Positions 29,988 to 52,539 of a stretch of 64,000 nucleotides of DNA are shown one piece after another. The DNA lies in contig OX597816.1 in the NCBI GenBank assembly GCA_951406725.2, forward strand, positions 58,652,001 through 58,716,000, given 5' to 3'. Under the pieces are notes generated by a model that was not told where the DNA came from, made no database searches, and saw only the letters and a list, made by a program, of their open reading frames with translations. Every line of letters begins with the position of its first letter. The first letter of the stretch is position 1. The stretch comes from Octopus vulgaris. Its lineage: Eukaryota. A program made the translations under genes and the position numbers.

Positions 29988-30500
29988 CCTTTCTCATTAT
30001 TTAAATTTGACGGATATTTCTCCTCATCTTGTTTGTTGTTAACACAGCGTTTCGGCTGATATACCCTCCAGCCTTCATCAGATGCCTTGGGGAAATTTCG
30101 AACCTGGGTTCTCATTCCTAAGGTATTTTTCGATGTTATTATTATTATTATTATTATTATTATTATTATTATTATTATTATTATTATTATTATTATTATT
30201 ATTCAGGTCATATGCTCATAGGCATATGGCGTAGTGGTTAAGAGCATGGGCTACTAACCCCAAGATTCTGAGTTCAATTCCAGGCATTGACCCGAATAAC
30301 AACAACAACAACAACAACAACAACATTAATAATAATAATAATAATAATAATAATAATAATAACATTGAAAAATACCTTAGGAATGAGAACCCAGATTCGA
30401 AACTTCTCCAAGACACGTGATGATGGTTGTAGTGTATATCAACCGAAACATTGTGTTAGCAACAAACAAGATGAAGACAAATATCCGCCAAATGTAAATT
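29988..30500. mobile_element. Fold-back element: inverted arms (~29990-30140 and ~30357-30500), each with a hammerhead motif, around a tRNA-like core
   Basis: Arms are diverged reverse complements; the centre has ggcatatggcgtagtggttaagagc...gagttcaattccaggca between (TTA)n and (AAC/AAT)n. Confidence 0.8.
30041..30086 (-). ncRNA. Minimal type-I hammerhead ribozyme motif
   Basis: Minus strand: ggcat CTGATGA a ggctg gagggtatat cagcc GAAA cg ct gtgtt; the cleavage triplet is degenerate. The partner at 30412-30457 (+) reads gacac GTGATGA tggttg..caacc GAAA ca tt gtgtt. Confidence 0.65.
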
Positions 30501-30527
30501 ATGTAAATAATGTACATAATGTACATA

Positions 30528-30930
30528 TAGGCGCAGGAGTGGCTGTGTGGAAAGTAGCTTGCTGACCAACCACATGGTTCTGGGTTCAATCCCACTGCGT
30601 GTCATCTTGGGCAAGTGTCTTCTGCTATAGCCCCGGGCCGACTAATGCCTTGTGAGTGGATTTGGTAGACGGAAACTGAAAGAAGCCTGTCGTATATATG
30701 TATATTTATATATGTATGAGTGTGTGTGTCCGTGTGTCTATGTTTGTCCCCCTAGCATTGCTTGACAACCGATGCTGGTGTGTGTTTACGTCCCCGTCAC
30801 TTAACGGTTCGGCAAAAGAGACCGATAGAATAAGTACTGGGCTTACAAAGAATAAGTCCCGGGGTCGATTTGCTCGACTAAAGGCGGTGCTCCAGCATGG
30901 CCGCAGTCAAATGACTGAAACAAATAAAAT
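30528..30930 (+). mobile_element. SINE family A, full-length copy
   Basis: Complete head-to-tail match to family A. Confidence 0.9.
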
Positions 30931-31227
30931 AGTAGTAAATAGTAAATAGTAATTCCTCATCTCTTAAATATAGAACGGTATAACCTTTCTCATGATATAA
31001 GTAGTACCTAATAAGGCATTGTTTTGGTTCAGCGCTGATATCATATTTGATTTTAAGTTATGTCAAAGAATTGTAACAGTTTCTTTGATATGTTCTTCAG
31101 TGTCCCTACAACTACAGGAGCAACTTTGGAAATGGTATTCCTATTTCTTTCTAGTTCCACCTTCGCCTTTGCAGAGTTGGTCATCTTTTTCACTTCTTCA
31201 ACTTGCTTCATTATTCTTTTATTCTGT

Positions 31228-31670
31228 TATGTGTTTCAGTCATTTGACTGCAGCCATGCTGGAGCATCGCTTTTAGTCGAAGAAATCGACCCAAAAGACT
31301 TATTCTTCGTAAGCCTAGTACTTATTCTATAGCGGTCTCTTTTTGCTGAACCGCTAAGTTACGGGGACGTAAACACACCAATATCGGTTGTCAAGCGATA
31401 GTCGGGGTGGGGGAACAAACACACACACTCACACAAACACATATATATATATATATATATATGTGTGTGTGTGTGTGTGTGTGTGTGTGTGTGTGTGTGT
31501 GTGTGTGTGTGTGACGGGCTTCTTTCAGTTTCCGTCTACCAAATCTACTCTTTAGTCGGCCAGAGGCTAAAGTAGAAGACACTTGCCCAAGGTGCCACGC
31601 AGTGGGGCTGAACCCAGAACCATGTTGTTGGTAATCAAGCTACTTACCACACAGCCACTCCTGCACCTAT
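31228..31670 (-). mobile_element. SINE family A copy (reverse)
   Basis: Reverse complement of family A. Confidence 0.88.
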
Positions 31671-31679
31671 GGTCACTTA

Positions 31680-32158
31680 CAAATCAAATATTAAAGTTTT
31701 GTGGGATTGTATAACCACCAAATTGATGTCCAGCCATCTCTTTCCCACTACTATCCATTTGTACATTAAGCTCCCACAGAATGTTCACGCTGATATTCTC
31801 CATAACTGACTCTGTTTTGTGTAGATGCTCTTTCCCATGTACTTCTAATTTACCGAGATTCTAGTGAACGTAGTGACTCACCCTATCGTGGAAGGCTTTG
31901 TATTGACGTTGTGCAAGTATCCCACACGAACTGACAATGTGTTCCACGCTCTCTACAACTCCCCATACGCAATCGGCACTTGTCACTTTCAACAATCTTG
32001 TAGATAAACATCTTTATGGAGTTGGTCGCAAGGGCCGCATCCTGGTTTGCCATAAGAAGACGTTTTTGTTCCCCTCTTTAGTTCTCCTTTTCCAATCCAA
32101 GTCCATGAATCAGTAGCCGTCACGTTTTTTGTTTCCCTTTCAAATTTTCCAAGGAATC
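31680..32158 (-). pseudogene. Highly decayed R4/Dong-like fragment
   Basis: GKFERETKNVTATDSWTWIGKGELKRGT, followed by remnants of HIVSSC and YKAFHDRV. Confidence 0.65.
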
Positions 32159-49280: not shown

Positions 49281-49315
49281 GTTTCTGATGAAGAGCTCCG
49301 CTTGAAACGTTAAAC
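49281..49315 (+). ncRNA. Minimal type-I hammerhead motif; degenerate paralogue at 48350-48384
   Basis: gttt CTGATGA a gagc tcc gctt GAAA cg TT aaac; stem I gttt/aaac; in a (TA)n-bounded ~200-bp repeat. Confidence 0.75.
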
Positions 49316-50109
49316 CCCCCTTCTTCCTTTCCTTCCTGAGCGTCCAATAATACTATATTTGTTCCACGTCCTCGCGTTGTTGTGGTTTCTCTTTGTGTTT
49401 TCATGTTTGGATTAACTTTATATATATATATATATATATATATATATATATATATATATAGAGAGAGAGAGAGAGAGAGAGAGAGAGAGAGATAGATAGA
49501 TAGATAGATAGATAGATAGATAGATAGATAGATAGATAGATAGATAGATAGATAGATAGATAGATAGATAGATAGATAGATAGATAGATAGATAGATATG
49601 CAGTTAAGTATATGTCCGGTCATACAGTGACCAGTGGTTTCGCTTCCGTAAAGGGCTTCGCCCCATGGACTACTCGTCAGACTCTCTCTATATATATGAG
49701 GGGTTTCTCCGTAGTTTCCTTCTACCAAATTCACCCACAAGGTATTATTGAGTCCGCGAAATCGGACTGAACCAGAAAACACATGGTTCGTAGTGAAGAA
49801 AAACAGGAAGTTAAACGAAATACTTAATGGAATTAGCTCAGTGTTGGTGTATTTATTTCAAATACAATGACTCACACAAAATTTACTTTCATTCTTTTTA
49901 TGTCATGAATTTTCAATAAGAACTGTTACTGTTTTTATTTTTTCTTTATATTTCATATTAAAAACTTTTTCACCCTCAAACATTCATTGCTGTTACCATT
50001 GCTTTTATCGCCCTAATTATATAACATTACTGCTTTGAAACCACATAATATTACGAGCATGAGCCGAATACCTCAGCTACGAAGTCACACGCCTTCACCT
50101 ATTCTTGGA

Positions 50110-50450
50110 TGACGAAAACTGCTTCCCAACCATGTAGTTACGGGTTCATTCCCACGGCACAGCATCCTGGGCAAGTGTCTTTTACAATAGCCCCAGGCTG
50201 GCCAAAGCCTTGAGCATGAATTTGGTTGATGGAAACTGAAAAGAAGCTCATTAGCTACGTGCATGTGGCACTTTTTGTTTGTGTTGTCCTGCACCAGCGC
50301 CACCAGCACTTGACAACCGATAATTGTTCCATCTCCGTAACTAGCGGTTTGGCAAAAGAGACCGATAGAATAAATACCAGGTTTACCAATAGGTATTGGG
50401 GCCTATGTGTTCGACGAAACCCTGCAGTCCAATAAATAGAAGAAAACAAT
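50110..50450 (+). mobile_element. Old SINE family A copy (another partial copy at 51127-51295)
   Basis: ctgggcaagtgtc, ggaaactgaaaagaagc and ggcaaaagagaccgatagaataa. Confidence 0.75.
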
Positions 50451-51717
50451 TACAGGTAATTTAGGGTTCATGCAATCTTTCATCAGAGGTTTTCAGACTT
50501 GTATAAAACCAGATCGGGGCCCGTGTTTTGATCCATGAGTATCTTCCTATTCCTAAACATTACGTCATTATGCACTCTGGTCATATCAATTATTACAAAT
50601 GAAGATCTCGTGTTACAGAATTTCCAACCTAAATAGCAACAACCAGCTGCTCTGTCACGCTTGTGTAGACATTAAAGTGCTGTTGCTTTTTTTGTCTTGT
50701 TTCGTTTGGTGATATTGTTGTCTGTTTATGCTTTTAATAGGATTGTACTTGTTTACTTATAATATATACGTAATATATACATATTATACATAACACGTAC
50801 AACAATCTACCCCTTATACACATCGTAAACTCCATATATAGACATGCTAAATAGTTTTGTGTGTGTGTGTGTGTGTGTGTGTGTGTGTGTTGCAAGCAAA
50901 AGAAAAGAAAAAAAAAGCAAAAGAAAAGAAAAAAAAGACACCCGAAATGCAGCATTCTTCAGGCAACATTCTTTTCTATTTTTCTGTTTTTTTAAACTAA
51001 ATTGTTTCACGTGCCATCGTATTTTCTCGACCTGCTGGAAATACCACCGAAGTTAAAATATCTCCAGAAACAAAAAAAATAAAAATACAAAGAATAAATT
51101 ATATAATGTAGCCTTTATATATACTAAGGCGCAGACATGGCTCTGGTTAAGAAGCTCGCTTCGCAAACACATGATTTCCGGTTCAGTCCCACTGCACAAC
51201 ACCTTGAGAAAAGTGCCTTCTATGATAGACCGGGGTCGACCAATGTCTTGTGAGTGAATTTGTTCCAAAGAAACTGTGGACGCCCGTCGTATATATTTAA
51301 ATGCCAGTGCAAAAAAATAAATACACCTGATACAATCACAATATTTAAAGAAAGACTTTCTTAAAAGTTATTAAATTATTTGTTTTTGTTTCAAACACAA
51401 GAACTGTTTAGAAAGAAGTCTTCACGTGATGAGCCTTTTGTGTTAAGCGCTTTCGTCAATTAACTTTTAAATCTGTTATGCGTTAATCCATAGAATAACT
51501 TTTCAGAAAATCTGTCTTTATGTATATACATACATACATACATACATACATACATACATACATACATATATATATATATATATATATATATATATATATA
51601 TATATTTACACATATACACATACATAGAGAGAGTTTGCGAAAAAAGCAAAAGACGAAGACAGGTGGTGTACAAAACAAATAACTGTATTAGTATTAACGC
51701 TCAGGAATAGTAAAAGT

Positions 51718-51753
51718 CTTTTACGTTTCGAGCCTCCGCTCTTCTACAGAAAG
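51718..51753 (-). ncRNA. Minimal hammerhead-like motif with variant core
   Basis: Minus strand: cttt CTGTAGA a gagc ggag gctc GAAA cg TA aaag. Confidence 0.6.
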
Positions 51754-52539
51754 TGACACAGAAAAAACAAGGAGAGAAACAAAGAGAGAACATATGTATA
51801 TATATATATATATATATATATATATATATATATATATATATATATATATATATATATATGTATATATGTATGCATATACATACATATAGTTGTGTCTGGG
51901 GAGAGTCATTCTCTTTTAGTGCCTTCTAATTTAACACACTCACCGGTAAAATTTCCACTTATTTCTTTTCTATTTTTCTAAAATTTTCGTTGCGTCTTGC
52001 AAAAGAGAATGACTCTCCCCAGACACAACAGAATATGCTTCAACACACGAACTCACATAAAGAATCTTGCTAACGAAATCCCAAAACGAAATATATATAT
52101 ACAATAAACAGCAGACTTTAAAAAAATAAAATTCCTGGGGTTGATTTGTTCAACTAGAACTCTTAAAGTTAGTGCTCCAGTACGGCCACAGTCCAGTGAC
52201 TGAAACAAATAAAAGATAAAAGAGAATATGTCTTAAAATGAATAACGTATTAGCCATGGCTGGAATGTCTTTAAAACTTTGTCTGTTGGATCAGGGCTGA
52301 CGTTGAGATTATCAAAAGCAACGGACCCACTATAAAAAAAGTCGATTTATTGAGATATTTCTTGATAGTAAACTTTTGGTTAACTCAGCTGTTATCCAAG
52401 ACATCTATATGTAAAAGTTTAGGTTTCTCTCACTGCAGATGTTGCGTAATATAAAGAAAAGTATTGACTGTTTTAGAAATTATTATTATTATTATTATTT
52501 TTTTATTTTTATTATTATTATTACTTTTTTTTTTTCTTC

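Follow-up and report, generated by a model that had tools for sequence, protein, structure and literature searches.

Clustered hammerhead ribozyme modules at an Octopus vulgaris locus compared with the 3' ends of Penelope-like elements

Hammerhead ribozymes of the minimal kind have been described in connection with Penelope-like elements (PLEs), and the comparisons made here refer to the consulted parts of the papers concerned. Single minimal hammerheads ('min-HHRs') were considered 'probably related to truncated PLEs' and have one additional base at 9/10.1 (Cervera and De la Pena 2014, PMC4209133). For the PLE PAc of the anole, an internal start of the reverse transcriptase (RT), a tail and uncleaved RNA as the main substrate in vitro were reported (Frangieh et al. 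2024, PMC11167929), and the transcription start of Drosophila Penelope lies in its terminal repeat, the pseudo-long terminal repeat (pLTR; PMC2377424). Non-LTR retrozymes form a further described group (Cervera and De la Pena 2020, PMC7229834). In octopus, the supplement of Craig et al. 2021 (PMC8557442) contains Hydra-1_Obim, a PLE of the Hydra clade with a hammerhead, and 190 PLE families were counted in an annotation whose consulted part leaves hammerheads unmentioned (PMC13282606). Here we analysed a stretch of 64,000 nt of Octopus vulgaris DNA (contig OX597816.1, 58652001-58716000), called the window, in which a sequence-only reading had noticed a cluster of hammerhead motifs around a remnant of a Penelope RT and had proposed several distinct, probably uncatalogued, families of non-autonomous ribozyme retroelements. 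With the octopus Hydra PLE and the 190 families on record, 'uncatalogued' is doubtful, and some of the families may already be present in the octopus repeat library or in the supplements of Li et al. (2026, 10.64898/2026.07.22.740005). Four stem III signatures of this genome were all absent from the consulted supplement of PMC8557442 (0 of 4), which points to different families.

The whole assembly (2.8 Gb, 227 contigs) was searched with the modules of the window, which were grouped into eight families, F1 to F8 (Table 1). Very probably the modules are hammerhead-bearing 3' ends, or pieces of the pLTR, of at least six coding PLE families, together with one non-coding unit of about 455 nt, and were likely written by PLE RT into TA-rich DNA. 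Coding sequence was found upstream in six of the eight families, of Neptune type in F5 and F7, of Hydra type in F3, F2 and F6 and of Poseidon type in F1; these clade assignments are comparisons of motifs and similarity with reference rows, made without a tree. The proposal to look for such modules at the ends of full-length PLEs proved fruitful, as F3, F7 and the F5 type stand on both sides of their elements, and F1, F2 and F6 at the 3' end. The minimal hammerheads of PLE type, the TA targeting and the PLE machinery of the sequence-only reading were upheld; the distinct retrozyme families were not upheld for most, since six of the eight are PLE 3' ends.

All 11 sites at which type I minimal hammerheads had been claimed are recognisable copies of high-copy families. 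Natural reference copies gave 12 matches in the cluster, and the additional one (49604-49684, minus strand) had been overlooked. The motifs were intact to a lesser extent than claimed, as only 5 of the 11 sites still fold as a hammerhead. Each non-folding copy carries 1-3 damaging changes at 85-97% identity to intact genomic relatives (for example a G at C3 at site 30412, and loss of U16.1 at sites 30041 and 41281), and most ribozymes of the window appear to be dead. The cleavage positions 38746, 39109 and 48196 had been read correctly.

One may ask whether a short motif was simply matched by chance in DNA so rich in microsatellites, and in line with this the folding energies of the window monomers could not be separated from those of shuffled sequences (z -0.5 to +0.7). 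A strict descriptor found 2 intact motifs in the window (C3 at 49285+ and 51749-), compared with a mean of 0.02-0.04 and a maximum of 1 in 100 shuffles. With a relaxed, family-free descriptor 5 motifs were found (38650-, 38677+, 39049+, 49285+ and 51749-) against a mean of 0.03 and a maximum of 1 in 100 shuffles of 500-nt blocks, so that the suggested check of motif frequency came out in favour of the motifs. Every site also belongs to a repeat family with differing but paired stems, and the chance explanation is refuted. Rfam gave no hammerhead or tRNA match among the best 150 of 296 window rows, which were mostly microsatellite hairpins.

The family copies show the type I layout, the CUGANGA/GAAA/UH core and stems I and II. 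The exception is F5: the claimed CUGANGA core reads CUGUUGA at 41281 and CUGUAGA at 51718, both A6U, and position 6 was U in 12 of 12 readable F5 copies. The earlier description of several families with different stems I and II and conserved pairing was borne out, as these stems were wholly different between families with pairing preserved, and stem III was palindromic (ACGU, ACAGCUGU, ACAUAUGU, ACCUAGGU, ACCAUUGGU). The extra base at 9/10.1 was present in F1 to F7 and absent in F8. Position 4 was C in 11 of 34 F7 copies (a U4C subfamily), and stem II was closed by an A-C or A-G apposition in F2, F3 and F6. Such hammerhead core variants may, reportedly, be covered by Lunse et al. 2017. The hammerheads resemble those in the consulted part of PMC4209133 in being of type I with a stem I of 4-5 bp, an extra base between A9 and stem II and a palindromic 15.2-16.2 or short palindromic stem III, in the many families per genome, and in that the motifs are mostly single, few of them within whole PLEs. 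They differ from them by the A6U core in the Neptune lineage, including a young intact family, by the U4C subfamily and by the appositions at stem II. At least three further hammerhead families with a long stem II and a palindromic stem III, absent from the window, were noticed in the extracted loci (L117:1100; L122:387 and 649; L125:6611; L128:44; L129:2305 and 2789; L500:6499).

The repeats amount to hundreds to thousands of copies per family. A first look at the genome gave at least 1920 candidates for F7, 1794 for F5, 829 for F3, 546 for F4, 1173 for F2, 2439 for F6 and 354 for F8; exact matches numbered 6747 for a 25-mer of F7 and 2454 for a 29-mer of F1, with 0 for control sequences. Since sites 38577/38673 form one inverted insertion and sites 30041/30412 likewise, the 12 matches represent 10 events, all within 21.8 kb, and the other 42 kb of the window held none. 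The background was 8 matches in 200 kb of sampled genome (20 fixed-coordinate stretches of 10 kb) and 7 in 40 kb flanking the window. The resulting density of about 10 times that of the sampled genome is an upper estimate, because the reference set consisted of the families of the window plus two others and the window was chosen post hoc; the family-free counts, 5 in the window and 4 per 200 kb of sample, lean in the same direction. TA tracts were only slightly denser in the cluster (11.9 per 10 kb compared with about 8.6 on average) and so do not explain the local excess of PLE ends. Boundaries of (TA)n had been reported for most modules, and this holds for F3, F4, F5 and F7; the (AAT)n tract of F1 lies inside the element and is not a target.

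The RT remnant of the window, frameshifted and cut at both ends, has 83-87% amino acid identity to a full-length PLE frame and 88-92% DNA identity to its genomic relatives (5689 candidates, open frames of up to 1214 aa). No module of its own family was found at the expected downstream place in the window, and Pfam detected neither the remnant nor the Hydra frames. Among 17 extended RT loci, 12 of them picked for long frames and 5 for score, an F5-type module lay on the strand of the open reading frame (ORF) in 16 and was whole on both sides in 10. The layout in locus L114 is pLTR, 5' untranslated region (UTR), ORF (RT, CX4CXXC linker, GIY-YIG), 3' UTR, pLTR and (TA)24; its frame matched RVT_1 at 1.4e-7 and GIY-YIG at 0.006, the latter below the cut-off, and the linker CSRPRCRTC matches the CX2-5CXXC of the Neptune reference rows. 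On these motifs we assign the parent of F5 to the Neptune clade. The F7 parent, reached from one locus, is placed there by its 57-70% protein identity to L114 and has about 70% DNA identity to the window remnant; F7 adjoined the parent ORF in 14 of the 20 loci that were extended, and in L341 and L343 it flanked the ORF on both sides. The idea that the modules are organised around the remnant therefore fails, F5 being the only family of its lineage; four families belong to other clades. Separately, the genome holds a young Neptune-type family (L114:1940-5581 and relatives) with many frames of more than 1000 aa and the A6U core in both pLTRs.

F3 is a very young family, with 99-100% identity between its copies, which are frequently arranged in inverted pairs with 0.4-4.2 kb between the partners. 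Its parent in L481 has a frame of 717 aa with DKT, YRDD, WFNIPF, CxCX5C and GIY-YIG, whose Atlas neighbours are HTH_animal/RVT_1/GIY-YIG, and in L478 the order ribozyme, ORF, ribozyme has a period of 4684 nt. Of the longer copies picked from the upstream parts of F2 and F6, 5 of 15 (F2) and 3 of 15 (F6) extended into GIY-YIG coding; both families have laddered 5' ends, and a CxC..CPL linker is visible upstream of F2. We place the parents of F3, F2 and F6 in the Hydra clade, F6 by similarity only. The F3 parent shares with the Hydra-clade PLEs of PMC8557442, in its consulted part, the DKT, the CxCX5C linker, the YRDD RT, the WFNxPF block, the C-terminal GIY-YIG and the (TA)n targets, and it could be aligned by eye with the Hydra rows. 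It differs from them in that F3 is very young, has a 70-nt tail and belongs to an element of about 4.7 kb rather than less than 3 kb.

For the insertion of such ends we propose that the PLE endonuclease nicks (TA)n or AT-rich DNA and that RT would start internally, 45-170 nt 3' of the ribozyme, two start sites giving rise to the tail. The template would be uncleaved RNA. An early stop, at which RT falls off at random, would produce the ladders of F2, F3 and F6, and run-off at the RNA 5' end the sharp walls in F7 (at TCATTC), F5 and F1 (at a tRNA-like head). Because stem III is a palindrome of only 4-9 nt, the predicted requirement of the ribozymes is either dimer formation or the help of a protein. 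An inverted, 5'-truncated arm and a one-sided tail were seen in the window in F1, F3 and F4, and copies run straight through the cleavage site, as would cDNAs crossing it. Most window copies are, on this reading of the sequence, 5'-truncated pLTR ends rather than retrozymes free of an autonomous parent. PAc (PMC11167929, consulted part) and the Neptune and Penelope/Poseidon PLEs are alike in an RT with C-terminal GIY-YIG, partial tandems, inverted arms, a tail from two RT starts and the uncleaved template proposed here; the difference is that the evidence here is genomic, with 5' ends that keep clear of the cleavage site and accumulate at putative starts.

The 5' ends were followed most closely in F7, in copies anchored 25 nt 3' of the cleavage site, which lies at +112. 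Among 30 copies, 18 started between -2 and +20 and 6 between +26 and +48, the others at -392, -387 (the limit of the reference), +78, +97, +100 and +117. Thus 28 of 30 started at or 3' of -2. Of 29 distinct position-ordered copies with an anchor near the 5' end, 27 stopped either past the A of TCATTC or at most 2 nt upstream of that base. This wall lies about 110 nt upstream of the cleavage site. No F7 copy started at the cleavage site (0 of 30, the nearest at +100 and +117), nor did any F3 copy (0 of 30, the nearest at -79), giving 0 of 60 together; the 70-nt tail was present in 15 of 30 F3 copies. Solo F5 copies mostly start 30-80 nt upstream of the query, in one short stretch of the pLTR. 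The F7 wall is best read as an RNA 5' end, with TCATTC as a putative initiator-like site. Absence of 5' ends at N17 need not mean that the ribozymes are silent, since cut RNAs may be rejoined or the products may be too short. A comparison of exact-match counts across the F3 cleavage site (631 and 1860) was unusable, the two 22-mers covering different subfamilies.

Alternatively, the sharp walls could be hot spots of truncation, caused by microhomology to the target or by fold-back of the cDNA, and not RNA 5' ends at all. The F3 palindrome of the window indeed has its centre at a short palindrome within the parent, F1 has fold-back junctions at its head start, and 9 of 30 F1 copies end in the (AAT)n linker. 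Yet the F7 parent, continuous through the wall, has neither a TA tract nor a hairpin there, the F7 ends spread 3' of the wall only (-2 to +48), as for template run-off, and the upstream pLTR of whole F7 elements likewise starts at the wall or past it in 5 of 8 cases. We consider hot spots an unlikely explanation of the walls. Read as RNA starts, the 5'-end counts, with 0 of 60 at the cleavage site and a wall at the putative start, would lend in vivo support to the in vitro study of uncleaved RNA, and an uncleaved template would explain why solo ribozymes outnumber whole elements. F3 and the families of L114 type, young and with intact frames, are suited to testing this account. Two further observations concern F7. 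In L142/L297:1290-1530 and L299:1500-1900, F7 modules are fused directly, at varying points, with a 5' fragment of the ORF of their parent, either as internally deleted elements or by template jumps of RT. In the F7 tandems at L271:1500-1530 and L283:1500-1545 the base immediately preceding the putative +1 is G, against C in the parent; this G resembles a cap-templated base, and two loci are too few to weigh.

Several points weigh against PLE ends as the source of the modules, or against parts of that account. The samples comprised 14-30 copies per family, some picked by score. The coding link covers six of the eight families; the parent of F8, which had inverted pairs in 3 of 11 loci, was not sought, and no coding parent of F4 was found in 25 of 25 loci. 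The parent links of F2 and F6 consist of amino acid matches of 31-45%. The F5 modules of the window have 72-85% identity to the pLTRs that flank ORFs, from which we conclude that they would stem from older sister subfamilies, and their closest solo relatives reach 93-95%; the exact parent subfamily was not seen collinear, and in L034 endonuclease coding of 86% identity is adjacent and inverted. The start site in F7 has the initiator consensus and genomic ends as its whole basis. There are also 16 head-to-tail junctions of F7 genome-wide, including a trimer and a tetramer, and solo copies of F5 and F7 could derive from short master copies instead of whole elements.

Some of these points fit the explanation given by the sequence-only reading, that several self-standing, non-autonomous retrozyme families with cleaved, circular RNA borrowed the RT of a PLE. 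The sharp 5' end and the head-to-tail junctions of F7 agree with it, and so in part does F4, a head-to-tail unit of 452-458 nt whose longest frame has 52 aa. The DNA upstream of F4 proved to be F4's own downstream sequence again, free of an ORF, in all of the 25 loci whose anchor lay within the unit, and PLE protein matches in 4 flanks were not joined to the unit. As a general account it is refuted by the six families that continue into coding sequence. The F7 junctions moreover vary in position between loci, as copies of a single circle would not, and there are 16 of them beside the 6747 exact matches; F7 as a mini-element of fixed length was dropped once its coding parent had been found. None of the 25 F4 loci, from the best 40 of 356 candidates scored, held two complete ribozymes; 4 reached the second and stopped inside it. 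We regard the retrozyme explanation as improbable. The claim of non-autonomous elements survives for F4 only, as a stand-alone non-coding unit, coding parents having been found for F1 to F3 and F5 to F7. F4 is likely a non-autonomous element of PLE type, copied by PLE machinery. In the consulted parts of PMC7229834 and Li et al. 2026, non-LTR retrozymes and non-autonomous Chlamys elements such as MRC1 resemble F4 (non-coding, about 455 nt) in the head-to-tail arrangement, the type I hammerhead and the PLE-style ends; the F4 copies seen differ in that they span 1-1.5 units and hold one complete minimal ribozyme instead of forming arrays of at least two, so that F4 comes close to the two-ribozyme criterion of Li et al. 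and stays short of it. As an example from an invertebrate, F4 would add to the proposal that PLE ends gave rise to retrozymes.

F1 has a structure of its own, a 75-nt head with A and B boxes, then (AAT)n and the ribozyme. Of 12 loci selected as long ones, 11 had endonuclease coding joined to head and ribozyme, the head and (AAT)n standing between the PLE stop codon and the ribozyme; from this upstream continuation into PLE coding it follows that the head lies in the PLE 3' UTR. RT motifs were found in L318 and L323, and GIY-YIG at the C terminus without a linker zinc finger in L318, L323 and L324, by which the parent is placed in the Penelope/Poseidon clade. F1 as a free short interspersed element (SINE) was dropped when the head proved continuous with the PLE ORF in long copies. 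PAc and the Neptune and Poseidon PLEs differ in that F1 adds the tRNA-derived head and (AAT)n before the ribozyme. In L240 a long interspersed element (LINE) like that described below at 53875-57785 interrupts the F1 linker.

The short copies of F1, to which that of the window belongs as it starts at the head, could be an RNA polymerase III (Pol III) SINE born in the PLE 3' UTR, whose A and B boxes drive an RNA of about 260-400 nt that is retroposed by the PLE. The head may act as a promoter. All 11 invariant tRNA positions were found at canonical numbering in 17 of 31 heads, where 2 of the 11 were fixed by the search pattern, and ARAGORN at a lowered threshold accepted 2 of 31 heads and 0 of 310 shuffles. 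In 30 copies anchored in the head, 21 started between -7 and +1 and 7 far upstream, in Poseidon-type endonuclease coding; with another reference copy, 18 of 30 started within 12 nt of the head start. Copies anchored just upstream of the head, by comparison, extended further by a median of about 340 nt, and of 13 ribozyme-anchored copies reaching the head 7 started at its start and 2 beyond. From the head, 24 of 30 continued into the ribozyme body (the other 6 being truncated, deleted or interrupted), 20 of 30 had an inverted partner, and the 261 nt of the unit from head to tail contain no run of four T. Against a Pol III SINE, the endonuclease coding upstream is equally without T4 runs, the head is continuous with the PLE ORF in long copies, and a 12-nt self-complementary stretch spans the head start, where many junctions fold back, so that truncation there could be favoured without a promoter. 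Rfam and default ARAGORN found no tRNA in the head stretches, and the family looks old, with a longest frame of 362 aa among 150 matches. We therefore hold the Pol III origin of the short copies to be possible, on balance falling a little short of probable.

Schistosoma SM-alpha (PMC6765202, consulted part) likewise has a Pol III-type promoter followed by a hammerhead. SM-alpha is tandem with no coding parent shown there, whereas F1 is dispersed, bears the inversion and tail of a PLE and joins without a break to a PLE ORF. F1 would show in concrete terms how a SINE-like element can arise from a PLE, and could serve as a model of the schistosome promoter-plus-hammerhead retroposons. Taken to its full extent, the proposal is that a Poseidon-type PLE captured a tRNA-SINE head in its 3' UTR, that the head launched a Pol III hammerhead SINE spread by the PLE to many thousands of sites, and that the 5'-end walls map PLE RNA starts with uncleaved RNA as the germ-line template; we put this forward tentatively, with slightly more doubt than belief. 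If true, it would be a SINE driven by a PLE, caught at its birthplace. No description of a tRNA SINE mobilised by a PLE was found in the literature searched, which left out most subscription journals and Repbase. Truncated PLE ends with hammerheads are known, and the greater part of the cluster consists of commonplace remains of known elements; the tRNA-headed structure of F1 and the non-autonomous F4 are new.

Table 1. Features of the hammerhead cluster in window coordinates, with the motif sites by which the families are named
Feature	Position	Strand	Motif site	Description
F1 inverted arm	29995..30209	-	30041	Head end, (AAT)n linker, hammerhead (C3 30081, U16.1 lost), 3' end without tail; 96.5% identity to natural copy
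F1 tRNA-derived head	30220..30294	+		A box 30227-30237, B box near 30270-30281; window copy starts here
F1 sense arm	30295..30505	+	30412	Linker of (AAC)n(AAT)n, then decayed hammerhead (core at 30417-30423, C3 replaced by G)
Common SINE	~30520-30940			Interrupts F1 sense arm
F1 displaced tail	30950..30977	+		Sense arm only; from comparison with family copies
F2 module	36450..36735	+	36491	Decayed hammerhead, C3 36494; Hydra-type PLE 3' end
F3 insertion	38535..38861	.	38577/38673	Single palindromic insertion, two 127-nt arms (C3 38650-, 38677+), (TA)n on both sides
F3 tail	38792-38861	+		70 nt, + arm only; parent a young Hydra-clade PLE
F4	38912..39325	+	39045	Inverted partial arm 38912-39016, then sense arm with hammerhead (C3 39049) and tail
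F5 module	41185..41385	-	41281	Core CUGUUGA, C3 41312, U16.1 lost; Neptune-type PLE pLTR end
RT fragment	45328..46065	+		Internal, frameshifted, Neptune-type PLE; no module joined
F6 module	48055..48255	+	48153	Decayed hammerhead, C3 48157; Hydra-type PLE 3' end
F7 module	48275..48400	+	48350	Decayed, 3'-truncated, C3 48354
F7 module	49205..49420	+	49281	Intact minimal hammerhead, C3 49285, N17 49311; pLTR piece of second Neptune-type PLE
F8 module	49598..49690	-	49680 (new)	Twelfth hammerhead, C3 49680, long stem II, GUC site
F5 module	51626..51795	-	51718	Folded hammerhead, core CUGUAGA, C3 51749, N17 51722

Other repeats were seen in the window. A repeat module with (TA)n ends at 33690-34190 (plus strand, 3525 candidates) has GAAAC about 28 nt ahead of CTGAAGA and resembles an octopus Naiad element that bears the remark 'HHR_half_core' in the consulted supplement of PMC8557442; its reading as a permuted hammerhead was not supported, with no consistent stems in 11 relatives, most of which read GAAAT. 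Long duplications in inverted orientation, with short spacers or (TA)n between the arms and free of hammerheads, lie at 36290-36420, 40900-41100, 41440-41880 and 46200-46880. LINE fragments bounded by (TAA)n were found at 16313-17732, 22956-25576 and 52707-53725. On the minus strand, 53875-57785 holds an open frame of 1059 aa with an RT (Pfam RVT_1) and a restriction-like C-terminal region, which we take to be a LINE, likely of the Dong/R4 type. At 9454-11040 a tandem repeat of 198 nt is present in eight near-identical units.

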